Shown in pieces: positions 3,285 to 36,424 of a stretch of 64,000 nt of DNA (the stretch's first letter is position 1; each line of letters opens with the position of its first letter). Below the pieces are notes generated by a model, which was not told the origin of the DNA, did not search any database, and saw only the letters and a list, made by a program, of their open reading frames with translations. This stretch comes from Escherichia coli (lineage in GTDB: Bacteria > Pseudomonadota > Gammaproteobacteria > Enterobacterales > Enterobacteriaceae): the NCBI RefSeq assembly GCF_048403405.1, contig NZ_CP183129.1; one strand, 5' to 3'. The translations under genes were made by a program, and so were the position numbers.

Positions 3285-4469
3285 ATGAGTGAAACTCGTT
3301 TTCATGGTGCCCGTGTTACGGAAAATACCGACCTGGTAACAGCGATTAACGATGTTGATTCCAGCGTTATCGGTATCGTGGCAACGGCGGATGATGCGGA
3401 CGCGAAGCTGTTCCCGCTGAATAAGCCCACACTGCTGACCCGCGTCAATGACGTGCTGGGAAAATGCGGGACAACGGGGACGCTTTATCGTGCGCTTAAG
3501 GCCATCGCAGACCAGGTGAGCACAAAGGTGATCGTCGTTCGCGTGGCTGAACACAAAGAAGAAGACGGAAAGACGCAGGATCAACTGGTTATCGGTGGTT
3601 CTGAGGATGACGGCAGCTATACGGGGATGTATGCGCTGCTTGTTGCAGAGCAGGATGAAAGCATCGGATACCGTCCGCGTATTCTGGCCGCGCCGGAGCT
3701 GGACACGGAGGCTGTAACAAAATCCCTGTGCGTGATTGCAGGTAAACTGCGCGCGTTTGTGTATGCCTCATGTCACGGCTGTAACACGATGGCTGAGGCG
3801 ATTACCTACCGCCAGAAATTCAACGAACGTGAGGTGATGCTCTTATGGCCGGACTTCATCGCCTACAACCCGAAAAGTGGCAAAAACGAAACGTTCCCCG
3901 CGCCTGCCTATGCGTGCGGCCTTCGTGCGTACATTGACCATGAGCAGGGCTGGCACAAATCGCTGTCCAACGTTCCGGTTAAAAATGTGCTGGGAATGTC
4001 CAGGCATGTGTTCTGGTCGTTGCAGGCCGAAGACAGCGATGCCAACAGCCTCAACAACAAAGAAATCACGACCATTATTCGTCGCAACGGGTTCCGCTTC
4101 TGGGGCAACCGCACACCGGAAACGAACGCCTACATCTTTGAGGTGTATACCCGAACCGCACAGGTGCTGGCTGATTCAATTGCGGAAGCGCAGTTTGAAA
4201 CCATCGACAGTCCACTGACACCTGCGAACGTGAAGGATGTTATCAGCGCCATCAGGGCAAAACTGGATTCGCTGGTTACTGCCGGGAAACTGATTGGTGT
4301 GGAGTGCTGGTATGACGTGGTGGATAACGGCACCACGAATTTACGTCAGGGACGTGTGCGTATTCGCTACAAATATACGCCTGTTCCCCCGCTGGAAGAC
4401 ATGGAGCTTTACCAGACGTTTACTGATGAATTCTTTGGTCCCGCATTTGCGGTGCTGGGAGGTGCCTGA
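3285..4469 (+). CDS. FI: contractile tail sheath protein
   Basis: ORF track 394 aa, P2 FI family. It is followed by the tube gene with a TGATG overlap. Confidence 0.95.
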   Translation: MSETRFHGARVTENTDLVTAINDVDSSVIGIVATADDADAKLFPLNKPTLLTRVNDVLGKCGTTGTLYRALKAIADQVSTKVIVVRVAEHKEEDGKTQDQLVIGGSEDDGSYTGMYALLVAEQDESIGYRPRILAAPELDTEAVTKSLCVIAGKLRAFVYASCHGCNTMAEAITYRQKFNEREVMLLWPDFIAYNPKSGKNETFPAPAYACGLRAYIDHEQGWHKSLSNVPVKNVLGMSRHVFWSLQAEDSDANSLNNKEITTIIRRNGFRFWGNRTPETNAYIFEVYTRTAQVLADSIAEAQFETIDSPLTPANVKDVISAIRAKLDSLVTAGKLIGVECWYDVVDNGTTNLRQGRVRIRYKYTPVPPLEDMELYQTFTDEFFGPAFAVLGGA

Positions 4470-19275: not shown

Positions 19276-20076
19276 TTAACCGCGCTTCGCCTTCTGCGTC
19301 GCGGTGGTTTTTCGTGTTGCAGGCTTCCGCGTTGTCTTTTTACTTTTGCTGCTTTCGTCCTGCGCCTGCGGTGCGCTGGCGTCTTCTGGTTCGGCTGCGG
19401 AATCGGCTTTTTTCAGGGCGCGGGAAAGGGTTGCAATCTCGCGTTTCACACCTGCGTTCGGGTTCAGGTGCATCGCTTCGCGCAGCAGCTTCAGTGATAA
19501 GGCCATGTTGTCTGCATCGGTCAGACCACGACGGGCAAAGGCGCACGCCTTGCATAATTTGGCGCGCACTTCGTCCGGCATATCCTGGTTGGCGACAATT
19601 TCCCAAAGTGTGTCCAGTGGTTCGATAAAGGCGGACAAATCCGCGTCGGCATCCGTCCCGGCCTGCGTCAGTACCGGGTTGCAGATTTCTTCGGTCAGTA
19701 CCGTGGCAGCAGTACGGCCAAAGTTATCCGGCATGATGAGGTTGTGACGGACCACATACGCACCAATACGCAGCGCAAGCGGAAGATCGCCGCAGTCAAT
19801 TGCCCACACCATCAGCGTGGCAATCACTTCATCCTGCTGCCCGCCGTCAGCCTCCAGCGTTCCCTCAATCCAGCCGGAAAAATCCGGCAACAACTCTTTT
19901 TTGATGGCGGCTTTCGCGCTTCTGGCCTGTACGCCCTTAAGCCGGGCCTGTGCCAGACGCAGACGATACAGCACCTCTTCATGCGCGGTACGCGCGGCGT
20001 GGTCCACGCCTTCATTCGCCCGGCCTGCGCGCTGTGCCATCACGTTCTGCCAGTGTTGCTGTGCAGGAGTAATCAT
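19276..20076 (-). CDS. M: terminase small (endonuclease) subunit gpM
   Basis: ORF track 266 aa with a basic C-terminal tail, position after N. Confidence 0.9.
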   Translation of the reverse strand: MITPAQQHWQNVMAQRAGRANEGVDHAARTAHEEVLYRLRLAQARLKGVQARSAKAAIKKELLPDFSGWIEGTLEADGGQQDEVIATLMVWAIDCGDLPLALRIGAYVVRHNLIMPDNFGRTAATVLTEEICNPVLTQAGTDADADLSAFIEPLDTLWEIVANQDMPDEVRAKLCKACAFARRGLTDADNMALSLKLLREAMHLNPNAGVKREIATLSRALKKADSAAEPEDASAPQAQDESSKSKKTTRKPATRKTTATQKAKRG

Positions 20077-22188: not shown

Positions 22189-23940
22189 ATGATTCAGGAC
22201 GCTTTTGTGCGCCAGCGTGCGCGACAACTTTACTGGCAGGGTTATCCGCCCGCAGAAATATCACGTCTGATGGGAATAAACCCGAACACGATTTATGCGT
22301 GGAAAAAACGCGACCAGTGGGATGAAACGCCACCCGTGCAGCGTGTCACGCAGTCCATCGATGCGCGCCTCATCCAGCTTACTGAAAAACAGAATAAAAC
22401 AGGCGGTGACTTTAAGGAAATAGACCTGCTGACCCGGCAACTTAAAAAGCTGCATGATGGCCAGCCGGATGTGATGGCCGCAGGAAAGAAAGGCCGGGCG
22501 AAAAAACTCAAAAATCATTTCACGCCGGAACAGATTGCCGCACTGCGGGAAAAAATCATCAGCAGGCTGGAGTGGCATCAGCGGGGCTGGTTTGACTCCC
22601 TGACCCTTTGCAGGGAAGCCGGGATACGTAACAGGATGATCCTGAAATCCCGACAGATTGGGGCGACCTGGTATTTTGCACAGGAAGCACTGCTGATGGC
22701 GCTGCGTGACGATGTGGTGCAACCTTATCAGCGTAACCAGATTTTTTTGTCTGCGTCGCGTCGTCAGGCGTTCCAGTTTAAAAGCATTATTCAGAAGGCC
22801 GCGGCTGAAGTTGATGTGGAGCTGAAAGGGGGCGATAAAATCATCCTCTCCAACGGCGCAGAGCTGCATTTTCTCGGCACTTCTGCTGCGTCGGCACAGT
22901 CCTATACGGGCAATTTTTATTTTGATGAATTCTTCTGGGTCAGTCGCTTTGCTGAACTGCGCAAGGTGGCTGGCGCTATGGCAACCCTCAGCGGACTGCG
23001 GCGCACCTACTTCTCCACGCCATCCACCGAAACGCACGAGGCATACGCCTACTGGAACGGCGACCGCTGGAACGAGAAAAAGGCCACGCATAAACGCCAG
23101 CGTTTTTCTGTGGACTGGAAAACGCTGCATAACGGGCTTATCTGCCCTGACCGGACGTGGCGGCAAATTGTCACGCTGGAAGATGTGGTTAATCACGGCT
23201 GGAAACACACCGATATTGATGAAATTCGTGATGAAAACACCGAAGACGAGTTCCTCAATCTCTATATGTGTGAGTTTGTCCGCGAAGGGGAATCGGCATT
23301 TAACCTGAATATCCTGATTGGCTGCGGTGTTGACGGATACGACGACTGGAAAGACTGGAAACCTTTTGCTCCCCGCCCGATGGGGAATCGCCCGGTATGG
23401 ATTGGGTATGACGCAAACGGCAGCAGTGGCAACGGCGACAGCGGCGCTGTGTCCGTGGTGGTTCCTCCGGCTGTTCCTGGTGGCCGTTTTCGAACGGTGG
23501 AGACGCGACGCGTTCAGGGGCTGGAGTTTGAAGAACAGGCCAGAGTCATTGAAGAGTTCACGTGTCGCTACAACGTGGAACACATCGGCATTGATGTGAC
23601 GGGCGGGAACGGGGAGGCTGTTTATCAGATAGTGAAACGGTTTTTCCCTGCCGCTATTCCGTACACCTTCACGCTGTCATCAAAACGGTCGCTGGTACTG
23701 AAAATGCTGCAAATAATGCGTGCCGGGCGGTGGGAATACGATCGCGCCGAACGCGAGCTGGTCGCGGCCTTTAACGCCGTGCGTAAGGTGAAAACACCGG
23801 GCGGCTTTATCACTTACGAAACGGACCGCGCGAGGGGGATCAGCCACGGCGACCTTGCGTGGGCAACCATGCTTGCTGTCATTAACGAACCAATTGGCGG
23901 CGAAGGAGAAAACGAGCGTTTCACGGTTATGGAGTTCTGA
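22189..23940 (+). CDS. P: terminase large (ATPase) subunit gpP
   Basis: ORF track 583 aa, P2 P family, divergent from O. Confidence 0.95.
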   Translation: MIQDAFVRQRARQLYWQGYPPAEISRLMGINPNTIYAWKKRDQWDETPPVQRVTQSIDARLIQLTEKQNKTGGDFKEIDLLTRQLKKLHDGQPDVMAAGKKGRAKKLKNHFTPEQIAALREKIISRLEWHQRGWFDSLTLCREAGIRNRMILKSRQIGATWYFAQEALLMALRDDVVQPYQRNQIFLSASRRQAFQFKSIIQKAAAEVDVELKGGDKIILSNGAELHFLGTSAASAQSYTGNFYFDEFFWVSRFAELRKVAGAMATLSGLRRTYFSTPSTETHEAYAYWNGDRWNEKKATHKRQRFSVDWKTLHNGLICPDRTWRQIVTLEDVVNHGWKHTDIDEIRDENTEDEFLNLYMCEFVREGESAFNLNILIGCGVDGYDDWKDWKPFAPRPMGNRPVWIGYDANGSSGNGDSGAVSVVVPPAVPGGRFRTVETRRVQGLEFEEQARVIEEFTCRYNVEHIGIDVTGGNGEAVYQIVKRFFPAAIPYTFTLSSKRSLVLKMLQIMRAGRWEYDRAERELVAAFNAVRKVKTPGGFITYETDRARGISHGDLAWATMLAVINEPIGGEGENERFTVMEF

Positions 23941-24986
23941 TGAGCAGAAAAAATAAAAAAGTGCGCATGAGTTCACGCATTGATCTCGCTGATGCGCTCA
24001 GGAAAGAATCATCGCTCAGTGCATTCACATTTGATGGTCCTTATCGCCTGACCGGGCATGACCTGCTGGACAATATGTACTGTGCTGATAACGGGCGGTG
24101 GTATGAAACCCCGGTGGACTGGTACGGTCTGGCAAGAGCCGCCCGGCAAACGTCCTGGCATCAGTCTGCGCTTTACTTTAAGCGCAATGTATTACTCGGT
24201 TGCTACATCCCGCACCCGCTGCTTTCCCGGCAGGATTTCTCGGCGCTGGCGCTGGACTGGTTTGTGTTCGGTAACGCATTCCTTGAGCTTCGGAGCAATA
24301 TGCTCGGCGAACCGCTTAAATTACGGCACGCCCTGGCGAAATACATGCGACGCGGAAGCGATCTTGAATCATGGTGGTATGTGCAGGATGGCAAGGACGC
24401 GTTCCAGTTTCGCCCTGGCAAAGTGTGCCACCTGATGAATCCGGATATTAACCAGGAAATCTACGGCATGCCGGAATATCTTGGCGCATTACTCTCGGCC
24501 AGCCTTTCTCATTCGGCGGACATGTTCAGAAAACTGTACTACGACAACGGATCCCACGCCGGGTGCATCATCTACATCGGTGCAGCGCAGGTAAACCGCG
24601 AAAGCATGGACTCCCTGAAAGAAACGTTACAGGGTGCGCGTGGTGGTGGTGCATTTAAAAACGTGCTCATTCATGCGCCCAACGGGGGCAAAGAAGGGGT
24701 GCAAATTTTGCCGTTCCAGCAGATCACCGCAAAAGATGAGTTCATGAATGTTAAGGCGGCATCCCGTGATGATGTGCTGGCTGCGCACCGCGTTCCGCCG
24801 CAACTGATGGGGGCGATGCCGGGCGAAAAAAGTGCGTTTGGTGATGTGGAGAAGGCCGCGCGGGTTTACGCAATTAACGAGCTGATGCCCGTCATGGAGG
24901 CCATGAAGCACATCAATGACTGGCTTGGCGAAGAGGTGATCCGCTTTAACCCTTACGCACTGTTAGACACCCAGCCCACATCCTGA
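23940..24986 (+). CDS. Q: portal protein gpQ
   Basis: ORF track 348 aa, P2 Q family, with an ATGA overlap with P. Confidence 0.95.
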   Translation: MSRKNKKVRMSSRIDLADALRKESSLSAFTFDGPYRLTGHDLLDNMYCADNGRWYETPVDWYGLARAARQTSWHQSALYFKRNVLLGCYIPHPLLSRQDFSALALDWFVFGNAFLELRSNMLGEPLKLRHALAKYMRRGSDLESWWYVQDGKDAFQFRPGKVCHLMNPDINQEIYGMPEYLGALLSASLSHSADMFRKLYYDNGSHAGCIIYIGAAQVNRESMDSLKETLQGARGGGAFKNVLIHAPNGGKEGVQILPFQQITAKDEFMNVKAASRDDVLAAHRVPPQLMGAMPGEKSAFGDVEKAARVYAINELMPVMEAMKHINDWLGEEVIRFNPYALLDTQPTS

Positions 24987-25012
24987 CGCGCTTCGCTTGT
25001 CTGCTGCTTCGC

Positions 25013-25037
25013 CGGGGCATAAAAAATTTATGCCCCG
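25013..25037 (+). terminator. hairpin after Q
   Basis: CGGGGCAT-AAAAAATTT-ATGCCCCG. Confidence 0.5.
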
Positions 25038-25199
25038 ACTCTCCAGCTCCTGTATCAGTCAGATAATTTCACGACGCTTTCCTGCTGATTGCCATCATCG
25101 ACAGTCAGACTCTTACGCAATCCCACCGCGTTGACTGCATGTTCTCGCCGTCTCAGTGCGATTTTGACGGCCTTACCTTTCACCCCATCAAATCAAAAG

Positions 25200-25450
25200 C
25201 CCTCACGTCTTTTTCACGCTCAGCGTGAGAAATACAGCCATTCTGTTGTGTCTCTGCGACATCGTTCAGGGGATGCTATTTACCCCCTGAAACGCGGGCT
25301 GTTCCCCCGTCACCTGCGCGCAGAAAAAGCGCGTTTTTTTGTGCACGCACGGATCCTTGACGGATCCAGCCGCCATGCGGGCCGGAAGGGTAAAAAGTCG
25401 TTCAAAAAAATTGTGCAAATTTGTGCACTTTTGTGCAGGTAAGCATGCCT
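25200..25450. other. probable cos / packaging region (exact cohesive ends not identified)
   Basis: This is the non-coding stretch next to the portal gene, as in P2. The segment CCGTCACCTGCGCGCAG (25306-25322) resembles my memory of the reverse complement of the sequence adjoining the P2 cos end. No G-rich 19-mer like P2/186 was found. Confidence 0.3.
25411..25440. repeat. three perfectly phased 10-bp direct repeats TTGTGCA(AAT/CTT/GGT); a fourth TTGTGCAC at 25339-25346
   Basis: Read directly from the sequence. They lie between the putative cos and the cargo promoter. Confidence 0.8.
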
Positions 25451-25456
25451 ATATAT

Positions 25457-25485
25457 TTGACCGTGGCTTGCCTTTGATGTAGTTT
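25457..25485 (+). promoter_or_regulatory. sigma70-like promoter candidate for the cargo operon (TTGACC-17-TAGTTT)
   Basis: Hexamers read by eye. Followed by the small inverted repeat AACCAC-N5-GTGGTT (25498-25514). Confidence 0.3.
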
Positions 25486-25537
25486 ATACGTCACAAAAAC
25501 CACAAAACGTGGTTATGATTTCTATGAGGGGGTTGAT

Positions 25538-25573
25538 ATGAAAAAAATGTATGATGAATTTGATGGTTTCTAA
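25538..25573 (+). CDS. 11-codon mini-ORF MKKMYDEFDGF (possible leader peptide)
   Basis: GAGGGGG lies 5 nt upstream of the ATG. The stop is 20 nt before the terminator hairpin. It is too short for statistics. Confidence 0.3.
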   Translation: MKKMYDEFDGF

Positions 25574-25593
25574 GCTACGTTGACCTCTAATGA

Positions 25594-25621
25594 GGCGGGG
25601 ATTTGCTCCCCGCCTTTTTTA
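25594..25621 (+). terminator. intrinsic terminator / attenuator 14 nt upstream of the first cargo gene
   Basis: GGCGGGGA-TTTGC-TCCCCGCC followed by TTTTTTAT. Confidence 0.7.
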
Positions 25622-25634
25622 TGGATGAAATAGG

Positions 25635-26132
25635 ATGAACCCAATAACACTACAAATCATCAGCAATGCTATTGTTCTGCTTGGCGTTTTGGTTGCCATT
25701 GGAACCATTATCTACAATGTGCGTACCGCAAAAAAAACTCAAACGGCCAACTTTCTTTTTGAGAGTCGGCAAGATATGCAATATATAGAGTCATTGCATA
25801 CCCTGAAACAAGTGCATCGTTCAGGCAAATCATTTCGTTCTTATGTTTTTCCTTGTGATGGTTGCATAATAACAGATGAAGAAATGGCCGAGCGTCGAAA
25901 ATTTCAATATATTTTAAATTTTTACGAGCGAGTTGCTGTAAGTATTCGTGAAGGTATTTATGATGAAAAAATGATAAAAAGAACATCTTACACAACAGTT
26001 GTAGAGACATATGATATTGCCGAGCCATTAATTAAAGCAATCAGAGAAAGCATTAATTCGGATACTACATATCAAGAATTCGAATGGTTAGTAAGAAGAT
26101 GGAAAGCTAATCCTTTACGGAAAAACAAATAA
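25635..26132 (+). CDS. cargo protein 1: single N-terminal TM helix plus ~130-aa helical soluble domain, function unknown (reminiscent of DUF4760-type proteins)
   Basis: ORF track 165 aa, AT-rich. There are no enzyme motifs I can recognise. Confidence 0.8.
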   Translation: MNPITLQIISNAIVLLGVLVAIGTIIYNVRTAKKTQTANFLFESRQDMQYIESLHTLKQVHRSGKSFRSYVFPCDGCIITDEEMAERRKFQYILNFYERVAVSIREGIYDEKMIKRTSYTTVVETYDIAEPLIKAIRESINSDTTYQEFEWLVRRWKANPLRKNK

Positions 26133-26171
26133 TGTTTTACCCTTTAATTTACAAGTAACACAGGGGGAAGT

Positions 26172-27014
26172 GTGACACAGAATCCGTTTTCATTTTATGA
26201 CTTTTTGGGCTATCTAATTCCAGGTGGGTTATTCCTGTTTATCCTTTTTTTGTTTTCTATTGAAATTAACCCTGTTTATATAGAAGGTATTCTTAACCAT
26301 ATCCTGAAATATAAAGAAATAATAAGTGTATTTATATATGTGGCATTAATCGTTCTATCATATATTTCAGGTCACTTCATATCTATTCTATCATCCTGTT
26401 TAATTGAAAAATACATGAACAGTAAACTTGGGTATCCTTCAATTTATCTGTTTTCTAAAAGAAGCTCCCTGAAAATAAAACGACATAATACTAAGTTCAG
26501 TATAGTTAATTTTATTCGTGGAGTTTTTTTATTTCCTGTATCAGCTTTTGATAAAGCAGAACATCATAAAACCACACTGCATTCTATACTTATTAAAGTC
26601 TTTTGGCCGCAAATACGAGATGGTTATATAAATGTTTTTTCTGTATCTACGCTATATCGACGTAAGGGCTTGAGGGGCAATCTTTTTCGCCTTGCTTATC
26701 ATTATGTGTATGAACATTCTAAAAATCATCAGGTGAAAATGCAAAACTATGTTGCTTTGTATGGTTTTTGTAGAAACATTACATTTGTTTTTCTCGCTTC
26801 AGTCTGGTTGCTTATGTTCCTGCTCCTTCTATCCTTTTTAATAGATATAAATATCAGACTGTTACCTTTTTGTTTTCTTCTCTTGTTTTGTATTGCTGTA
26901 TCCCGAGTATTTTATTATGGTTTTGTTAAGTATTATCGCCGCTATTCTCTTGAGGTTTTAATGGCATTTGCGGTACTTCAGCACGATAAAAAAACTTCGG
27001 CAATTTCATCATGA
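26172..27014 (+). CDS. cargo protein 2: polytopic membrane protein, function unknown
   Basis: ORF track 280 aa with a GTG start after GGGGGAA. Hydrophobic helices sit at the N-terminus (FYDFLGYLIPGGLFLFILFLF, IISVFIYVALIVLSYISGHFISIL) and the C-terminus (ITFVFLASVWLLMFLLLLSFLI, LLPFCFLLLFCIAV). Confidence 0.8.
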   Translation: MTQNPFSFYDFLGYLIPGGLFLFILFLFSIEINPVYIEGILNHILKYKEIISVFIYVALIVLSYISGHFISILSSCLIEKYMNSKLGYPSIYLFSKRSSLKIKRHNTKFSIVNFIRGVFLFPVSAFDKAEHHKTTLHSILIKVFWPQIRDGYINVFSVSTLYRRKGLRGNLFRLAYHYVYEHSKNHQVKMQNYVALYGFCRNITFVFLASVWLLMFLLLLSFLIDINIRLLPFCFLLLFCIAVSRVFYYGFVKYYRRYSLEVLMAFAVLQHDKKTSAISS

Positions 27015-27024
27015 TTTGAAACAT

Positions 27025-27049
27025 TGGCACCCTGTTAGCAAGGGTGCCA
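27025..27049. terminator. hairpin between convergent cargo gene 2 and parR
   Basis: TGGCACCCT-GTTAGCA-AGGGTGCCA; no clear U-tract. Confidence 0.4.
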
Positions 27050-27097
27050 GAATGATGTGTTGGTCTGTATTTTATTAGTTCACATACAATTATCAGA

Positions 27098-27412
27098 TTA
27101 TTCTGGGAATAAGGTCTGAATATTCTTTTTTATTCTATAAAAATTGCATTCAACTCCGCTAGGCTGATTATCCTGGTATGTTTCCTTGATGCTAACGGTA
27201 TTGAAGGGGAGGTTGTCCTCTGGCCATTCGGCCATCCAGTAGGCAAATGCTGGGTTGCGCTTTATGAGCGCTAGCCCAGCCAGAAAGGCCGCGCGTTGCG
27301 CGCGGCTGCGTTCGGAGGCTGGTAGGCTATCGAGGTAATTGCACGCCTCCTGTTCACTCTTGACGGCGGCGGGCTTCAGATAGAAACTTATCCGTCTGGT
27401 TGGTGTCGTCAT
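27098..27412 (-). CDS. parR: ParR-like centromere-binding adaptor
   Basis: Trimmed to ATG 27412. MTTPTRRISFYLKP...YLDSLPASERSRAQRAAFLAGLAL parallels R1 ParR (..TLDSIPQGERSRLNRAALTAGLAL). Confidence 0.8.
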   Translation of the reverse strand: MTTPTRRISFYLKPAAVKSEQEACNYLDSLPASERSRAQRAAFLAGLALIKRNPAFAYWMAEWPEDNLPFNTVSIKETYQDNQPSGVECNFYRIKKNIQTLFPE

Positions 27413-27416
27413 TGGT

Positions 27417-28376
27417 TTACTCCTTGTCCATTGCGTACAGCCCATTAACCAGAGCAAACTGTGGCACCCCGTCCGCGATGAAAGTCGCATTAACTCCGCA
27501 GACTTCGCGGATAGCGGGTGCCACAATCTCCGCCCCTCCACCGACAACCATCACCCGCCCGTAACCCGAAAAAACCGCCAGCGCGCGGATCACGCGTTGT
27601 TTCAGTGTTTCTTCCTTTTCACGAATAACCGCCATCAGGCTGGCGTAATGCGCGTCATTGTGGATGTGCTGGCGCAGCCAGGCTTCATCATGGCGATGTT
27701 CGATAATGGTATTGGCGATGTGGTGACTGGTGCGCATACCGTTAGTGGCCATCACCGACAGTACGGCATCGGCCATCAGGGAAACGCCTACGTGTGGATC
27801 GCAAAACACCTGGCTGATACCTGCCAGTTGCCCTTGAACCTTTGCCACATCCAGCGTGGTTCCGCCTAAATCCACAATCAGCAGGGATTCAAACGGACTC
27901 ATGTCAGCCAGTGCTTTAAAGCCAGCCGGAATGGATTCAGGCATAACCCGCACGTTACGGATAGTGAATGCTTCGCCGTTCTGGTACTCCACCGAGCGCA
28001 TAACGTTCGCTTTTTTGCGGTTGATGTTGGCCATGTCCGGCTGTGCGTTTGTCTCGAAATACTCGCTCAGTGGCAGGGTGACAACCACATCCACCTCTTG
28101 TGGCGTGATGCCTGATTTGACCAGCGCGTGATGAATGGCGATTACATTCACATCGCTGTACTGGTATTGCGTGTCGGTCGTCTGGACAAAGCGATCGCTG
28201 ACCGGATCAAAACCATAGCGCACGCCATCAAGCATGTAGTTCGCGGGCTGCATGCCACCGAACGGCGCAGACCATTCCGACTTGAAGCTGTTCGGGCTGA
28301 TGGCGTTGCGGCGTTCGCCATTCTCAGTCCATGCCAGCTTGATGTTGGTGGAGCCGTCGTCGATACAAATTTTCAT
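27417..28376 (-). CDS. parM: ParM/StbA actin-like segregation ATPase
   Basis: MKICIDDGSTNIKLAW...ISPNSFKSEW...YSDVNVIAIHHAL...VMPESIPAGF...LIVDLGGTTLD...GVSL...VMVVGGGAE is colinear with plasmid R1 ParM as I remember it. Confidence 0.95.
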   Translation of the reverse strand: MKICIDDGSTNIKLAWTENGERRNAISPNSFKSEWSAPFGGMQPANYMLDGVRYGFDPVSDRFVQTTDTQYQYSDVNVIAIHHALVKSGITPQEVDVVVTLPLSEYFETNAQPDMANINRKKANVMRSVEYQNGEAFTIRNVRVMPESIPAGFKALADMSPFESLLIVDLGGTTLDVAKVQGQLAGISQVFCDPHVGVSLMADAVLSVMATNGMRTSHHIANTIIEHRHDEAWLRQHIHNDAHYASLMAVIREKEETLKQRVIRALAVFSGYGRVMVVGGGAEIVAPAIREVCGVNATFIADGVPQFALVNGLYAMDKE

Positions 28377-28404: not shown

Positions 28405-28518
28405 CCGTTTACGGGATTTTTAAATCCCGCTTTCGCCTGTTTTGTGCGCGCTTCATATATCGCGGCGCGTTTTTTGCTCATTTACGGGATTTGTGAATCC
28501 CGTTTCTGTCTGTTTTTT
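28405..28518. repeat. two ~38-bp direct repeats, each with an 18-bp palindrome (CGGGATTTTTAAATCCCG 28412-28429; CGGGATTTGTGAATCCCG 28485-28502): parC-like candidate
   Basis: The repeats bracket the region immediately upstream of parM. The second copy lies inside the 3' end of gene A. Confidence 0.45.
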
Positions 28519-31293
28519 GTTTCCACTGGTCAGGCCAGTCCTCAGCAGGTTTGCTTTGCGGCGGGCGCGTTCAGTGGTTTCTCTGATTCTCTGTGCGTGC
28601 TCTGCGTCACGAATGGCGCGCAGCATGTCAGAAAGCACGGTAACGGGTGTTTTCATGGTGTTCTGGACCTGCTGAAGTGTGGATGCCAGGCGTGCGGCGG
28701 CTTCGGGGTCTGATGCCCCGAGCTGTGCCAGATAGCTGGAGACCGGGTTATGGCGGATCTCCGTGCTGCTTACGCCGTGATTACGGCTCAGGCGCTGCCA
28801 GAGCTGCGTGATTCGGCTGTCCGGGCGGGCATCCGGTTTGCGTACAATTTCAAATCCCTGCGGTGCAATGATGCTGCCGTCAACGTACAGACTGCCGCCC
28901 CGTAACAGGTGCTGCATCTGTTGTTCACCGATATGCAGGCCGAGAGATTCAGCAGACTCCCGCCATTCTTTAGCGAGTAATTCGTGGTTATCAGGCAAAG
29001 GCCGCTGCTGTTTGCGGCTCTGTGTCCAGCTCTGCATTTCATCGCTGCTGTTTTTTGCCTGTTTGTCACGAAGCGAACGCATCAGCGCCCGGCGTTCGTG
29101 TCGTTTCAGTGAGCGCATCCATTCGTTCACTTCAACGCCGTTAGGGAGCTGCGGCCACGGTGCTGGCCGTTCTTCCGGCTGTTCTGTCCCGTTGTTGTCC
29201 GTTTCCTGTACACGGGGACAGTTATTGCCACGAGTCCAAGGGGCGGCAGGGCCGCCCTGAAGGTCAAAACCATTTTCGCGGGCGCTGTCTTCCGCTTCCG
29301 GTTTGCGTCTTACCAGCTTCCAGTTATCCGGATGCGTGCACACACGGGAGGATTCCCCGATGAGTGGTGACCAGATCCCGTAAATCTGTACGCTCTGTTC
29401 GCCGTAATCGTTCATCTCATCGGCGAGGTCGTAGGCGGTGCGAATCAGGTAGTCTTTGCGTGGAACAAGTACGCCGCCCTGTTTCTCTATGTAGGTGGCA
29501 AAACATCCGGCATCAGCGGCGGCAAGAACCGCATCCATTGCGTCATCCTTCAGCCGTTGCGGGCCTTCCGGGTTGCGTGCCATCTGGCTGGCAAGGCGGC
29601 GCAGTTCACGCCATACCTGGCGGGAGGGGATGCCAAAGAACTGGAACTGGCGGACCCGGTGAAGGCGCGCCCAGCCGATGGCGCGTTCCACGCTCTCGGC
29701 CATTGATTTTCCGGTTTCGTGGTCAACGCGTGGCTTGCCCGTTTTCGGGTCGATGCCATCCACGGCACGGCTGTCCAGGTTTTTCCCGATGTAGGTGGCG
29801 ATGTAGCTGGTCGGTGTGCCTTTTGAGCCGTCGACGTACTCCGCCTTAAAGCGTGGGGTAATATCATCACCCAGCTCGTGACGATCTTCCTGAATGGCAA
29901 TATCGCGGGTGTGGGACACAATAGTGTCGATTTCTTCCGGATGAGCAAAGACCATCATATGCCAGTGCACGGTGCCGTCATGGTGAGGCTCCACCGTGCG
30001 GATGCCATACCAGCGCAGGCCGTCGCGGTTCAGTTTCTTGCGGACCGCCGCAAAAAACGTGTTAACCAGGTAATCGCTGGAGTCGCGCATGGTGGCCCCG
30101 TTCCATTTGGGATTCGGATGACCGTTCTCTGTTGTGGCGTGGTATTTTGACGGGCAGGTGACAGTCAGAAACACCGCTCTGTCGCCACGGGCTTCGGCCA
30201 GAAGTTCCAGCCCCTTCATGGTGGCCATCATTTCTGCCTTACGGTGAACCGGGTTACTTACTCCCGCGTAATACACTGTCTCGAGATCAATCGTGAACCC
30301 ATCTTCGTTTTCCAGCATGAAACTTTTCAGGAAATCGCGTGTTTTCTCGCGCTGTGCGCGAAACTCGCTTAATGCGTCCTGGCTCAGATAGGGCGATGTT
30401 TTTCTGGAAACCAGACAGGCGGCGCGGAGTTGTTCTTCTCTCCACTCGCAACGTAACAGCCACAGTTTGCGTTTCCACCATTCCGCACAGGTCAGGCGAA
30501 GGATTGCGCCCGGCAGCAGCTCCGTGTCCGGTTCGTTCCTCCGGTCTTTATCTGTTGTCAGTGCGTCATAATGTGGAGGCATGATGTGCAGGTGTAACGC
30601 CATGCGGGCCAGCATCTGATACGCCTTCAGCGTTACATCCATGGTCAGTTCGCCATCGGTCGCGCCAAAGCCATCGCAGAGTTTTTCGAAGGTGCTGCTG
30701 AACATCGCCGCCGTCATGGTGGCCAGCGTCTGTATCTGGTGTTTGTTGAGCTGCGGCAGGTAAAGCAAATCGTCCAGGCGTTCGCGTCCGGCAAGGGAGC
30801 GATAACCAGGTGTCAGCCAGCGCCCGTCAGTGCGATCCAGACGTTCGAATATTTTGCGCAGGGTTCCGCGTGCATAGCGTTCCGCCTGCCAGGTCTTTTT
30901 GCCTTTCTGACGATCGGCTTCCTGCTTCTTGCGCAGGAAAGAGAGGTGGCGGCTCAGAGGTTCTCGCAGATAACCGGGAAGCGCCTTCAGTGTGGCAAAG
31001 GCACGGGCTACCGGGTCTTGTTCTGTTGCCCGGCGCTTACTGATGATGCTCTGTGCCAGCTTTTCACGCTGTCCGGCTTCCTCAAGGGATGCCATGAGTT
31101 TTTTACCCATGGCGGATTGTGCGAAAAAGGCTTCTTCCTTCGCTTCCTGTTCTTCCTGTGCCCTTTTGTCCGCCTCAAGGTAGTAACGGATGGCGCGTTG
31201 CAGGTCGGTTTCAGTTTCCTGCCTGCGCTCCGTAAATCTGGCCGGATCAATAGCTGGTCGTGGTTCATTCCAGCTCCATGCAAACGCACTCAT
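28453..31293 (-). CDS. A: replication initiation endonuclease gpA (rolling-circle Rep), 946 aa
   Basis: Contains ..VEPHHDGTVHWHMMVF.. (HUH-like) and ..GTPTSYIATYIGKN.. (catalytic Tyr pair). ATG 31293 overlaps the upstream stop (ATGA). It is about 185 aa longer than my recollection of P2 A (761 aa). Confidence 0.9.
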   Translation of the reverse strand: MSAFAWSWNEPRPAIDPARFTERRQETETDLQRAIRYYLEADKRAQEEQEAKEEAFFAQSAMGKKLMASLEEAGQREKLAQSIISKRRATEQDPVARAFATLKALPGYLREPLSRHLSFLRKKQEADRQKGKKTWQAERYARGTLRKIFERLDRTDGRWLTPGYRSLAGRERLDDLLYLPQLNKHQIQTLATMTAAMFSSTFEKLCDGFGATDGELTMDVTLKAYQMLARMALHLHIMPPHYDALTTDKDRRNEPDTELLPGAILRLTCAEWWKRKLWLLRCEWREEQLRAACLVSRKTSPYLSQDALSEFRAQREKTRDFLKSFMLENEDGFTIDLETVYYAGVSNPVHRKAEMMATMKGLELLAEARGDRAVFLTVTCPSKYHATTENGHPNPKWNGATMRDSSDYLVNTFFAAVRKKLNRDGLRWYGIRTVEPHHDGTVHWHMMVFAHPEEIDTIVSHTRDIAIQEDRHELGDDITPRFKAEYVDGSKGTPTSYIATYIGKNLDSRAVDGIDPKTGKPRVDHETGKSMAESVERAIGWARLHRVRQFQFFGIPSRQVWRELRRLASQMARNPEGPQRLKDDAMDAVLAAADAGCFATYIEKQGGVLVPRKDYLIRTAYDLADEMNDYGEQSVQIYGIWSPLIGESSRVCTHPDNWKLVRRKPEAEDSARENGFDLQGGPAAPWTRGNNCPRVQETDNNGTEQPEERPAPWPQLPNGVEVNEWMRSLKRHERRALMRSLRDKQAKNSSDEMQSWTQSRKQQRPLPDNHELLAKEWRESAESLGLHIGEQQMQHLLRGGSLYVDGSIIAPQGFEIVRKPDARPDSRITQLWQRLSRNHGVSSTEIRHNPVSSYLAQLGASDPEAAARLASTLQQVQNTMKTPVTVLSDMLRAIRDAEHAQRIRETTERARRKANLLRTGLTSGNKKQTETGFTNPVNEQKTRRDI

Positions 31294-31679
31294 GGCTGGT
31301 ATCCCGTCACGCGCTGCCACTCCTGCGAGAAGAGGGCGGAAAGGCGGTTAAATTCAGCGGTGTATTCACTCAGCGAGGCACACCCGCCAGCAGTGCGATG
31401 CGCCAGCATTGCTGCAAATACGGAGGCCGGAGAGTCGTAATACGCCAGCAGTGATTCGCCGTGCGGTGTCAGGCAGTGCAACGCCAGTCCGTGTGGTGTG
31501 AAGTCCACGCGGTAGCAGTCGTCTACTGTGAAATAAAGGGTGTCTGCATTCTCCGGTTTTGTGGTGCGTGCTCTGTTGTCACGACCACGGATGTAGAGAT
31601 CAAATAACCCCTGAAGAACGGGAGCCAGACGGGTGTCCTGTGTGCGCACCCATCTTGTGAAGTCATGAGCGTCAATCAT
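31290..31679 (-). CDS. hypothetical early protein (129 aa)
   Basis: ORF track; translationally coupled to A. Confidence 0.6.
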   Translation of the reverse strand: MIDAHDFTRWVRTQDTRLAPVLQGLFDLYIRGRDNRARTTKPENADTLYFTVDDCYRVDFTPHGLALHCLTPHGESLLAYYDSPASVFAAMLAHRTAGGCASLSEYTAEFNRLSALFSQEWQRVTGYQP

Positions 31680-33246: not shown

Positions 33247-33485
33247 GCGATATTCCCCAGCTTATACGGTTCAATATGTTCCCCGCATTCTGCGGCACAG
33301 ATTAGCTCGGAAAGTTCGTTAAGTGCATCCAGATCATCAGCGTAAAAAGCCACGTCATACAGACTCCGGATTGCCCTGGTCAATGAGTCACGGGCTGCAC
33401 GTTCAGCATGAGAGCCTGATGCACTTAAGCGAAAATAAAAACGCTCAAGTGCTTTGTTGATGAGTGTTTTATATTCTTTGCCCAT
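33243..33485 (-). CDS. hypothetical early protein (80 aa)
   Basis: ORF track. Confidence 0.55.
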   Translation of the reverse strand: MGKEYKTLINKALERFYFRLSASGSHAERAARDSLTRAIRSLYDVAFYADDLDALNELSELICAAECGEHIEPYKLGNIA

Positions 33486-34601: not shown

Positions 34602-34889
34602 CTAAAGCCCCAGCCACAACAACCATGCATCGCGGCGTTCTTTCGGTTGCTCAAAAAACGCTTTGCGCATGCCTTCGTTAAATGCTGGCAGATATACCCA
34701 GTTTTCTGATGCACGCGTCTTTACTGAACCTGGTTTCACAAAGTCAATTGTCGGTAGCTTTGCTGCGTCAATCATGGTTCTGACTGTGGATTCCTTGCGG
34801 CCGATCATCTTGGCGAATAGTTGATATGGCACCGCTTCAAGTGGATATGGTGCTACCTGAATGAAGCCCCCAAGCTCTGATTCGCTCAT
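34602..34889 (-). CDS. cox: Cox (excisionase / Pc repressor)
   Basis: ..VPYQLFAKMIGRKESTVRTMIDAAKLPTIDF...ENWVYLPAFNEGMRKAF...RRDAWLLWLGL parallels P2 Cox (IPYQEFAKLIGKSTGAVRRMIDKGKLPVIDM...EYWVYLPAWNNGL...IRDGWLMWLGL). Confidence 0.9.
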   Translation of the reverse strand: MSESELGGFIQVAPYPLEAVPYQLFAKMIGRKESTVRTMIDAAKLPTIDFVKPGSVKTRASENWVYLPAFNEGMRKAFFEQPKERRDAWLLWLGL

Positions 34890-34914
34890 TGTGGTAATCT
34901 CCCTAATTCGTTCG

Positions 34915-35009
34915 AATGGCTCAAAATGGCTTATATCGGCTTATTTGAGTGTTTTTATGTTTGTGCCCGATGTGGCATGTTGCGATGGAGGATATGCCCG
35001 ATATGGCAT
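34915..35009. promoter_or_regulatory. lysis-lysogeny switch region with phased direct repeats
   Basis: Three 10-bp phased units AATGGCTCAA / AATGGCTTAT / ATCGGCTTAT lie at 34915-34944. Two copies of TGCCCGAT(G/A)TGGCAT lie at 34964-34978 and 34995-35009. All sit between the divergent cox and C genes. Confidence 0.4.
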
Positions 35010-35323
35010 CTTTGTCAAGCATGGGTGAAAAATTTCGCCTGATTCGTGAAGCAGAAGGTATGACCCGCCAGGAGTTTGCGGATTGTGTTGGGCTGCCTTA
35101 TGGGACGGTAACTAACTATGAGGTGAGGGGGAAGCAAGTAACAGAGGGTGCCTTACTTAAGGTTACGAAACACCCTAAATTTAAGAAATATGCTTATTGG
35201 TTATCAACAGATGAAACGATGCCGGAGGTTGGGCAAATTTCTCCGGCTCTCTCTCTTGATGGTTCCTGCAATTCGGAGGGAGATCGTGTTTCAACCGAAA
35301 CAATCCAAAAATTATCCCGCTGA
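35003..35323 (+). CDS. C: immunity repressor C (HTH)
   Basis: Trimmed to ATG 35003, which follows GGAGGA. MASLSSMGEKFRLIREAEGMTRQEFADCVGLPYGTVTNYE parallels P2 C (..ISEKIVLMRKSEYLSRQQLADLTGVPYGTLSYYE). Confidence 0.85.
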   Translation: MASLSSMGEKFRLIREAEGMTRQEFADCVGLPYGTVTNYEVRGKQVTEGALLKVTKHPKFKKYAYWLSTDETMPEVGQISPALSLDGSCNSEGDRVSTETIQKLSR

Positions 35324-35419
35324 GGCCAGAAAACTGGTTAGACCTGCTTTTTGTCTGGTCTGATTATTGCTGGAAAGAGGCTGGAGAAATTGTAGAGCGG
35401 TTCATTGGAGGGCTTCGCA

Positions 35420-36424
35420 ATGTCGATTAAGAAGCTCGAAGATGGTCGTTATTTGCTGGACATCAGGCCGAACGGACGCAAGGGAAAGCGCGTGCGTAAG
35501 GTATTTGACAAAAAATCGGTAGCGGTGGCCACTGAACGCTACATCATGGCGAACGCTGAAAAGCGGGAATATATACAGGGCTACCGTGATCGTCGAACGC
35601 TAAATGATTTGCTTGAGTTGTGGTGGATGTATCACGGCCAGCACAGGCGTAAGGCAGAAGAAGACCGAAAACAACTGCGCAACATAATCAATGAGCTTGG
35701 CGCTGATATGCAGGCTGTGGATCTTGATAAGCTAAAAATTATCGCGTGGCGTTCTCAAAAGATAGCTGATGGATTGAAACCGTCATCTGCTAACAGATAC
35801 ATGAATCGGTTATCCGGAATGTTTACCGTACTGAAGAAAATAGGCCTCTGGGATGCAGAACATCCGGTAAGGGGAATTTCTATTCTTTATGTATCTCCAC
35901 GAGAAATGGCTTTCCTGTCCCAGAAGGAAGTGGCGTTATTGCTCGATACACTGGAGGGCGATTACTGGCGTGTTGCGCTTTTGTGTTTAAGCACGGGGGC
36001 GCGCTGGAGTGAAGCCTGTAAGCTTCGTGGTGAACAGATAGTTCATAACCGTGTAACGTTTCTTGAAACCAAAAATGGCCGAAAGAGAACAGTGCCAATT
36101 TCGCAGGCAGTTTGTGAGGCGATCAAAACCAGAGAAACAGGCGGCTTGTTTGAGGTGAAGTACCGGGAATTCTGCTTGGCGCTGAAAAGAGTTAAGCCCG
36201 ATTTGCCAAAAGGCCAGGCTGCACATGTGCTGCGGCATACGTTCGCCAGCCATTTTGTGATGAACGGAGGAAACATTATTGCGCTTCAGAAGATTCTTGG
36301 CCACGCAACCATTCAGCAAACAATGGCATATGCACATTTTGCACCGGATTACCTGCAGGATGCGGTGGCCCTTAATCCGCTGAAAGGTGGCGTGAGTGTC
36401 CACGCAGTGTCCACGGGGGATTAA
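35420..36424 (+). CDS. int: tyrosine integrase
   Basis: MSIKKLEDGRYLLDIRPNGRKGKRVRKVFDKKS... and ...HVLRHTFASHFVMNGGNIIALQKILGHATIQQTMAYAHFAPDYLQDA are colinear with P2 Int. Confidence 0.95.
   Translation: MSIKKLEDGRYLLDIRPNGRKGKRVRKVFDKKSVAVATERYIMANAEKREYIQGYRDRRTLNDLLELWWMYHGQHRRKAEEDRKQLRNIINELGADMQAVDLDKLKIIAWRSQKIADGLKPSSANRYMNRLSGMFTVLKKIGLWDAEHPVRGISILYVSPREMAFLSQKEVALLLDTLEGDYWRVALLCLSTGARWSEACKLRGEQIVHNRVTFLETKNGRKRTVPISQAVCEAIKTRETGGLFEVKYREFCLALKRVKPDLPKGQAAHVLRHTFASHFVMNGGNIIALQKILGHATIQQTMAYAHFAPDYLQDAVALNPLKGGVSVHAVSTGD

Follow-up and report, generated by a model that had tools for sequence, protein, structure and literature searches.

What is the function of the repeat-rich region that precedes the cargo genes of a P2-family prophage in Escherichia coli? 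The region belongs to a 64,000-nucleotide stretch of contig NZ_CP183129.1, which is called the window below. It contains three TTGTGCA boxes repeated every 10 bp, followed by a promoter candidate, an open reading frame (ORF) of 11 codons and an intrinsic terminator located directly before the gene of a DUF4760 protein. The sequence-only reading of this DNA had described positions 25339-25621 as one control region of the cargo genes. The features that it listed are all present in the sequence. The unity of the region is not upheld, and the evidence divides it at 25437/25438 into a phage backbone part and a cargo part. The favoured answer is that two independent modules abut at this point, an extended cohesive-end (cos) site and a cargo micro-gene unit, and a probability of roughly 55% is assigned to this reading. 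The region is located between the portal gene Q and the replication gene gpA, where P2-like phages have their cos-proximal cargo hotspot (Rousset et al. 2022, PMC9122126).

The phased boxes and the phage backbone

The TTGTGCA heptamer as such is not enriched in the window, where 15 copies were found and 15.0 were expected; four of these 15 copies fall within 100 bp. The phased triple is unique in the window, with a single match, and none of 100 shuffled sequences reaches it, even when three mismatches are permitted. The exact triple is present on at least 120 viral contigs, and together with the loci collected earlier, 151 loci had enough flanking sequence for the comparison. Among the matches listed, gpQ or gpA is encoded nearby in 142 of the 153 box-bearing loci. 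The 140 nt upstream of the boxes show a median identity of 96% to the window in the 150 other loci among these matches, and the 80 nt downstream of the boxes fall, in the same set, into 44 unrelated sequence types. In phages with the same backbone and other cargo, the match to the window extends from Q to 25437 and ends there. Since the upstream side is conserved and the downstream side unrelated, the boxes belong to the backbone and everything from 25438 belongs to the cargo.

More distant relatives place the limit at the same position. Enterobacter phage phiT5282H, with 74% identity, is alignable solely at 25293-25437. In this phage and in P88, the boxes are directly followed by the terminator of opposite-strand genes which converge on the boxes. 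Therefore, the boxes are not a dedicated control element for the downstream cargo. An alignment with related prophages had been proposed earlier as a check on the repeats, and it finds them conserved in P88-like, Enterobacter and Xenorhabdus relatives, as well as in P2, 186 and P4.

The order of the elements in P2, 186 and P4 matches that of the window: cos is followed by a GC hairpin and by a T-run that ends in (A/G)TGCA, and 55-60 bp of spacer separate this T-run from the three boxes. The distal boxes of these phages are TGCA-based, of the (C/A)ATGCA type (Table 1), and are spaced by 10 bp and then by 10-12 bp. The satellite P4 and P2 have nothing in common besides the packaging signal (PMC9122126), and for this reason P4 provides the strongest argument for a packaging role of the boxes. 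Another example is L228 (IMG/VR contig, 3901-4068), whose match to the window is confined to the cos core and to the proximal and the three distal boxes, with different spacers between them. This contig is satellite-like, as it encodes a P2-family capsid homologue (35% identity), a Toprim primase, P2-like and P4-like integrases and a MazF-like toxin; no portal, terminase or gpA was found within 12.7 kb. Among the 153 viral-contig loci listed, no P4-like satellite with the exact GTGCA triple was detected with P4 Psu, Sid, Delta and alpha as probes. The boxes are thus conserved with the packaging function across phages and satellites.

The probable extended cos site

The 19-nt segment at 25296-25314 aligns with the reverse complement of the annotated P2 cosR, GTGCTTTCCCCGCCTCGCC. 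As in other P2-family phages, this cohesive end is related to GGCGAGGCGGGGAAAGCAC and stands beside the portal gene Q, which ends at 24986. The GC hairpin and T-run that come next are found at the equivalent place in P2, P4, 186 and Xenorhabdus, with stems of different sequence. In alignment A3, composed of nine P2-family and satellite sequences including P4 and L228, the columns of the T-run and of TGCA are invariant, and the position of the proximal box reads TTTTAATGCA in P2, P4 and 186. The spacer at 25351-25410 retains its length, and its sequence varies between lineages and in the satellite-like L228.

The boxes are therefore short repeats at most about 150 bp from the nick site, and their conservation follows the packaging genes and not the adjoining cargo, which is the behavior of a cosB-like element. 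From these comparisons, they are best read as part of an extended cos site that probably binds the terminase. In the proposed mechanism, positions 25296-25437 would act as a cis-acting packaging signal recognised by the terminase of the phage, and gpM/gpP would presumably contact three distal boxes on one face of the helix and one proximal TGCA-type box. Satellites would copy this extended signal. If box 3 forms the outer edge of the essential signal, it therefore also forms the inner edge of the cargo hotspot.

Two roles had been suggested for the repeats, namely cosB-like sites and repressor sites. The first is the best supported, by the backbone and the satellites, and the second is not supported for C and Cox, as the repeats are absent from the cox/C switch. 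Operators of C or Cox were considered and rejected, with no second phased set in the 64 kb, even at three mismatches. The switch region itself (34890-35010) carries different repeats. A direct-repeat pair TGCCCGATRTGGCAT is located there at 34964-34979 and 34995-35010, between the divergent cox and repressor genes; it is unrelated to the TTGTGCA boxes and is a candidate for the operators of the immunity switch.

Two further observations concern the parts of the cos site. The hairpin and T-run at 25316-25340 resemble an intrinsic terminator for transcription that leaves the late Q operon, and this hairpin could shield the cargo from late transcription besides serving packaging. The two copies of ACGGATCC, 11 bp apart (25349-25367), create two BamHI sites in the spacer. 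This repeat is kept in P88-like phages and is not found in L228 or in more distant relatives.

The micro-ORF and its conservation

The cargo side of the junction begins with a micro-ORF whose conservation was followed from two directions. The first, starting from the peptide, used a degenerate DNA pattern which demands an intact peptide. It recovered 11 loci in a collection of one genome per species (Klebsiella, Yersinia, Atlantibacter, Enterobacter and Xenorhabdus), as well as matches on 41 viral contigs and 14 metagenome contigs. A single layout recurs in nearly all of them, consisting of a Shine-Dalgarno (SD) sequence, an ORF of 10-11 codons, about 18 nt, an intrinsic terminator, a further 10-25 nt and the DUF4760 gene. 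The peptide is kept with synonymous codon changes in 47 unique loci, and a strong SD at optimal spacing is present in every copy. The second direction started from the protein, and 55 DUF4760 loci were collected by protein similarity alone (32-100% identity), 52 of them with enough upstream sequence. An upstream ORF of 10-20 codons, ending in [DE]-x-[FYWN]-[DE]-G-[FY]-stop, is present in 51 of these 52 loci. The remaining one has an insertion sequence (IS) element inserted between the ORF and DUF4760.

Distant clades share the same ending and have longer or different N-termini, for example MKKFDEFEGF, MNLYEEFDGF, MIVKSIRDEYEGF, MNVLPVQANEEYEGF, MSSYVENAREEYEGF and MKPMHQEGWDGY. Closer to the window, Citrobacter phage Shae_phiSM encodes MKKVFDEFDGF behind a 5′ leader that is 57 nt longer, and another E. 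coli P2-like lineage encodes MNKAFDEFDGF, in which GAC and GGA are synonymous replacements and TGA closes the ORF; each of the three stop codons occurs among the loci. There are 18 distinct 21-nt endings, which vary mainly at the third codon positions, the glycine at -2 and the aromatic residue at -1 being invariant. The variation of third positions around fixed residues therefore indicates selection on the peptide and not on the RNA.

An Rfam 15 scan of 24500-27500 at E<=10 returned sub-threshold matches alone, the best of them SorX (19.3 bits, cutoff 46.6) and isrP (16.7 bits, cutoff 45). The literature search found the peptide motif (DEFDGF) in no relevant paper. The micro-gene unit is conserved and apparently undescribed.

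The likeness of the peptide to a part of DUF4760 is a separate observation. Residues 145-152 of the protein (about 26067-26090) are an invariant T-Y-Q-E-F-E-W-L, which resembles the peptide ending F-D-E-F-D-G-F. This may be a coincidence or a hint that the peptide mimics part of DUF4760. In the longer DUF4760 homologues, no fused copy of the motif was found.

The promoter candidate and the predicted 5′ leader

The candidate promoter TTGACC-17-TAGTTT had been named in the sequence-only reading, and this proposal is partly sustained. A consensus promoter scan does not list it, because its -10 element matches three of six positions, and lists GTCACA-18-TATGAT at 25490-25519 instead. A TTGAC -35 and a TAnnTT -10 element with a 17-nt spacer recur at matching positions in diverged DUF4760 variants, in the plasmid copy and in the Xenorhabdus copies of the unit. 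The predicted transcript has a length of about 130 nt (about 25492-25620). The stem-loop near its expected 5′ end is present in both the minimum-free-energy and the centroid fold. It is kept in the plasmid copy (AGCCAC..GTGGTT) and in locus L090, in which the stem is the same and the loop different. Other variants have different hairpins near the predicted 5′ end. The probable role of the stem-loop in the window is that of a 5′ stabiliser.

The terminator and the tests for a switch

The terminator stem starts 18 nt after the stop codon of the micro-ORF, and the terminator ends 14 nt before the ATG at 25635. The energy of its stem-loop is -16 to -19 kcal/mol, depending on the amount of the U-tract included. 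The scan for terminator-like sites lists it (25592-25621) among six sites in 24900-27200, where 2.3 +/- 1.7 were expected. A hairpin with a T-run is present in 42 of the 47 unique loci and occurs with 34 distinct stem sequences, including compensatory changes such as GGCGGGGA/TCCCCGCC versus GGCGGAGA/TCTCCGCC, the latter in Shae_phiSM. The other five loci are IS-disrupted copies or have other contexts. The distance between the stop codon and the stem is 16-19 nt in most loci, within a range of 16-29 nt.

A classical attenuator depends on an alternative RNA structure, and a conserved alternative was looked for in several ways. The complementarity of the leader to the arms of the terminator is at the shuffled level in 33 diverse loci (median z of 0.43 for the 5′ arm and -0.13 for the 3′ arm). 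The minimum-free-energy fold suggested a pairing between the region upstream of the ORF and the start of DUF4760, and this pairing is unconserved, with a median z of 0.27 and 2 of 29 loci below -2. A CCTC/GAGG mini-hairpin just 5′ of the terminator in enteric copies was rejected as a switch, being too weak (3-4 bp) and absent in distant clades.

Several side observations concern the ends of the terminator. In some E. coli (L010:3001-3173, L049 and L069), an IS element in the 3′ arm splits the micro-ORF from DUF4760; the element in L010 is annotated as IS421, and the downstream genes of MSI001 are frameshifted pseudogenes. Distant DUF4760 clades share an ATGG right after the U-tract (25621-25638 in the window). 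In the window, this ATGG is the start of a 5-codon ORF, ATGGATGAAATAGGATGA, whose stop overlaps the ATG of DUF4760, and in some relatives the ATG after the U-tract is in frame with DUF4760.

DUF4760 and the copies without it

AlphaFold2 models DUF4760 as an all-helical protein that begins with a membrane helix, with a confidence score (pLDDT, predicted local distance difference test) of 92.7. The soluble domain comprises residues about 45-165, and R45, R68, K115 and R137 are invariant. A Foldseek search against PDB gave no significant match (best E 0.18). DUF4760 belongs to the content of the P2 hotspot, where it was catalogued 197 times (Rousset et al. 2022, supplementary file 6). The literature search on this family found this catalogue entry and one unrelated paper, and nothing else.

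The linkage between the two genes is asymmetric. DUF4760 never occurs without the micro-ORF (51 of 52 loci and the one split by an IS element), and the micro-ORF can stand alone, as in L008, L015-L017, L021, L042 and L184. Four Xenorhabdus species have the promoter, SD, ORF and terminator directly after the cos boxes, followed by convergent genes, with no DUF4760. A plasmid family of about 47 kb also carries the promoter, SD, ORF and terminator without DUF4760. L042 and L184 encode the same peptide in two unrelated contexts and use different codons for it. The first is an unrelated phage contig without the terminator and DUF4760. The second, an IMG/VR contig, comes from another P88-like phage and has the mini-ORF MKKKRMNDEFDGF with its stop codon in the early operon, where it is flanked by a ClpX-zinc-finger-like gene (PF06689) and by the gene of a 174-residue unknown protein, again without terminator or DUF4760.

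The second cargo gene is not part of the conserved unit. It is absent in Shae_phiSM and L009, and accompanies DUF4760 solely in the cargo of the sequence type 131 (ST131) kind. Its product has a weak PADLOC match to Csx27 (E 1.6e-5), a membrane protein of type VI-B CRISPR systems.

The proposed action of the micro-gene unit

In the favoured reading, a sigma-70-type promoter would start the transcript of about 130 nt, which would contain the 5′ stem-loop, the strong SD and the 11-codon ORF. The conserved product would end in an acidic-aromatic tail, DEFDGF-COOH. Most transcripts would stop at the strong terminator, and the weakly initiated DUF4760 gene would be reached by read-through alone. 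The cell would thus make much peptide and little DUF4760. The strong SD of the micro-ORF, the strong terminator, the weak initiation of DUF4760 and the stand-alone copies all fit this ratio. Acting in trans, the peptide would most likely have DUF4760 as its target, to which it would be a partner or an antidote; the trans-acting role is given moderate confidence. On sequence grounds, we favour a translated micro-gene with read-through to DUF4760, with a nascent-peptide attenuator as a live rival.

A more specific proposal is put forward tentatively. Peptides of 10-20 residues ending in [DE]-E-[FY]-[DE]-G-[FY]-COOH might be trans-acting partners or antidotes of DUF4760, and the two might constitute an unrecognised two-component exclusion or defence module of prophages. 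If so, the internal terminator would set a high ratio of peptide to effector, and the peptide genes without DUF4760 in phages and plasmids would be orphan antidotes or counter-measures.

Several points weigh against the reading as two modules with a trans-acting peptide. First, the P2-family cos has a 55-bp core, according to two articles (PMC5694545 and PMC9594776, both citing Ziermann and Calendar 1990). Such a core would extend from the ends over the hairpin to the proximal box and would leave out the distal boxes. Papers on cosmid engineering contain no minimal map of cos. Second, box 3 of P2 overlaps the -35 element of the mapped old promoter, and therefore a secondary influence of the boxes on cargo transcription is possible. 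Third, the copies without DUF4760 were found by the pattern that requires an intact peptide, so that decayed ones would be missed, and decayed copies of the micro-ORF are indeed seen (L046/L051 and L233). Fourth, a ribosome-arrest peptide would likewise be conserved in just the six residues that precede the stop, and the constrained distance of 16-19 nt between the stop and the terminator could reflect a coupling between the ribosome and the terminator.

Alternative explanations

The alternative that survives best is a cis-acting leader peptide, which we regard as possible and still short of probable. According to this explanation, the sequence [DE]E[FY][DE]G[FY] would stall the ribosome at or near the stop codon, and the stalled or absent ribosome would alter the efficiency of the terminator 16-19 nt further on, so that DUF4760 would be induced. 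The stall condition could be a metabolite, a translation inhibitor or the takeover of the cell by a phage. The order of a short ORF, a terminator and a gene is typical of attenuators, and the explanation also accounts for the conservation of the six C-terminal residues alone, with N-termini that vary within 10-20 codons, for the constrained distance between stop and stem, and for the ORF that precedes DUF4760 in 51 of 52 loci, the 52nd being split by an IS element. In its classical form, the leader or attenuator switch of the sequence-only reading is not supported, as no antiterminator complementarity rises above that of shuffled sequences. Neither arm of the terminator is paired by the leader beyond this level, and the long-range pairing with the start of the DUF4760 gene is not conserved. 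Given the known footprint of the ribosome, a stem which begins 16-19 nt beyond the stop codon should be out of reach for a ribosome that terminates there, and the hairpin should therefore remain free to form. The loci use all three stop codons, and hence a mechanism specific to one release factor is unlikely. Finally, intact copies exist without any downstream gene, as well as inside another operon without a terminator.

The second alternative assigns the boxes to transcription, as sites of a factor (C, Cox, Ogr or a host factor) or as a curved upstream element of the cargo promoter. The boxes end 20 bp upstream of the -35 element, A/T tracts are in phase with them, and the overlap of the third P2 box with the -35 element of the old promoter points in the same direction. 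The boxes are, however, equally conserved where no promoter follows and the genes are convergent, which is the case in P88, in phiT5282H and in many of the 44 junction types. They are also present in P4 and L228, and the cox/C switch has the TGCCCGATRTGGCAT repeats and no similar set. This explanation is therefore considered improbable.

A third possibility, to which we give little credence, is that the boxes are the target or the boundary of a recombination process which swaps the cargo of the hotspot. The homology breaks within a few bases after box 3 in the 44 unrelated junction types among the matches listed. Such a sharp boundary is equally expected if nothing essential to cos lies beyond box 3, the junction has no associated recombinase, and the boxes are conserved in P4 despite different hotspot flanks.

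The least likely alternative, a non-coding regulatory small RNA of about 130 nt with an incidental ORF, would suit the compact unit of promoter, 5′ hairpin and terminator and its modest folding z-score of -2.4, but is contradicted by the conservation at the amino-acid level with varying third positions and different codons in unrelated contexts, by the strong SD at optimal spacing in all copies, and by Rfam scores far below the threshold (19.3 bits at best versus 46.6). The separate small transcript that had been suggested earlier fits better than a switch in so far as it is a translated micro-gene and not a non-coding RNA, with a length of about 130 and not about 100 nt.

The prophage setting

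The prophage in the window is of the P2 family and of the P88 (Xuanwuvirus) type. Positions 24990-25640 are 95-97% identical to several P88-like phages, and 25330-25640 are 100% identical to many E. coli ST131 genomes, e.g., EC958 and JJ1886. The features of the two modules and of their surroundings are collected in Table 1.

Table 1. Positions in the window of the parts of the two modules and of neighbouring prophage genes, with the distal boxes of three related phages
Feature	Positions	Strand	Description
Putative cohesive-end segment	25296..25314	.	19 nt, GGGCTGTTCCCCCGTCACC; cleavage positions presumed
GC hairpin and T-run	25316..25340	+	GCGCGC-AGAAAAA-GCGCG + T7 run; directly after cos; terminator-like in scan
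Proximal box	25339..25350	+	TTGTGCAC(GCAC); TTGTGCAC itself at 25339-46
Variable spacer	25351..25410	.	About 60 bp; ACGGATCC twice, GC-rich segment, A7 tract at 25404-10
Three distal TTGTGCA boxes	25411-17, 25421-27, 25431-37	+	Exact 10-bp phasing; end of conserved backbone
Cargo promoter candidate	25457..25485	+	TTGACC-17-TAGTTT; TTGACC 25457-62, TAGTTT 25480-85
Stem-loop	25498..25514	+	AACCAC-AAAAC-GTGGTT; near predicted 5′ end of transcript
SD and micro-ORF	25526..25573	+	SD GAGGGGG (25526-32), 5 nt before ATG; 11-codon ORF 25538-25573, MKKMYDEFDGF and stop
Intrinsic terminator	25592..25621	+	GAGGCGGGGA/TCCCCGCCTT at 25592-25616; 10-bp stem, 5-nt loop, T6 at 25615-20
Cargo gene 1, DUF4760	25635..26132	+	165 residues; PF15956, E 1.8e-34; N-terminal transmembrane helix and helical domain
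Cargo gene 2	26172..27014	+	280 residues; function unassigned; no Pfam match above threshold
Small terminase subunit, gpM type	19276..20076	-	PF05944, E 1.1e-36; presumed reader of the boxes
Large terminase	22189-23940		
Portal Q	23940-24986		
Replication protein gpA	28453-31320	-	Preceded by StbB and ParM
Cox, helix-turn-helix repressor, integrase	34602-36424		
P2 distal boxes			TTAATGCAAT CTCATGCACC CTTGAATGCA
P4 distal boxes			GCATGCAAAG CCATGCACCT TATCGATGCA
186 distal boxes			GCATGCAAAA CAATGCACCT GTTGCATGCA

The other side of cos is variable as well. EC958 (L232:13544-14466), phage 569R5 and L009 have an extra minus-strand gene of about 525 bp between Q and cos, which is not present in the counterpart of this segment in the window (24987-25295). 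On the side of cos that faces Q, there is therefore a second point of variable insertion.

Significance

The boxes themselves are an ordinary, though nicely delimited, part of a packaging site. Their analysis gives sequence-level limits for the packaging signal of P88-type P2-like phages, at about 25296-25437, and satellites copy exactly the blocks within these limits. This information is useful for cosmids, for transducing particles and for the recognition of satellites. It also shows that the well-known P2 hotspot for cargo and defence genes has its inner edge at the base that follows box 3.

On the cargo side, DUF4760 is accompanied by an unannotated micro-gene which is conserved more strictly than the protein encoded behind it, and half of the unit would be missed if DUF4760 were cloned or annotated without the micro-gene. 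A peptide that regulates or neutralises DUF4760 would represent a very small partner protein of a new kind, and an arrest peptide would represent a new sensor sequence.

Comparison with known systems

The cos sites of P2, P4 and 186 are the closest relatives of the extended cos site. They occupy the same place between the portal gene Q and the old/tin-type hotspot, with a related 19-nt end and an adjoining hairpin, T-run and TGCA box. The differences are the box, which is ATGCA there and GTGCA here, and the cohesive end. The distal boxes of the window lie 95-140 bp from the ends, outside the 55-bp core cited for P2-family cos in the articles named above.

In phage lambda, cosB (the R sites bound by gpNu1) and cosQ likewise consist of short repeats within about 150 bp of the nicking site, with the small terminase gene nearby. 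There is no sequence similarity, and R3, R2 and R1 are separated by a bend made by IHF, whereas the boxes described here have an exact one-turn spacing. By analogy, the distal boxes may work like the repeats of lambda cosB or cosQ.

The old promoter of P2, like the promoter candidate of the window, is a constitutive cargo promoter located just outside cos and reading away from it; its transcript starts were mapped at 33424 and 33426. The -35 element of the old promoter overlaps box 3, and no micro-ORF or terminator follows, whereas here the promoter candidate is placed 20 bp past box 3 and is owned by the cargo.

Leaders of the TnaC, ErmCL/MsrDL and MgtL types consist of a very short upstream ORF of conserved sequence, followed by a terminator and a regulated gene. 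The layout of the micro-gene unit is alike. The anatomy of a classical attenuator, with ORF, terminator and gene in this order, is present if the ORF is translated as predicted. An antiterminator was not found among the pairings examined, and MKKMYDEFDGF contains no regulatory codon run for a sensed amino acid. The feature typical of nascent-peptide arrest is present, as the sequence is conserved near the peptidyl-transferase centre and the N-terminus is free to vary. The unit differs from these leaders in that no alternative RNA structure was found in it, its ORF stops 16-19 nt before the stem, copies exist without the downstream gene and no inducer is known.

In antidote-first modules of the type II toxin-antitoxin kind, the small first gene is well expressed and the second poorly, as proposed for the micro-gene unit. 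The asymmetric linkage is alike, with a first gene that occurs alone and a second that never occurs without the first. The first product has here just 10-20 residues, and an internal intrinsic terminator is atypical of such modules.

The peptide ending can finally be compared with acidic C-terminal tails which end in an aromatic residue, such as the SSB tip (DFDDDIPF) and that of T7 gp2.5, and which dock into basic or hydrophobic pockets of their partners. The spacing of the residues and the invariant glycine at -2 set the micro-gene peptide apart from these tails. What it shares with them is the acidic residues and the C-terminal Phe or Tyr.

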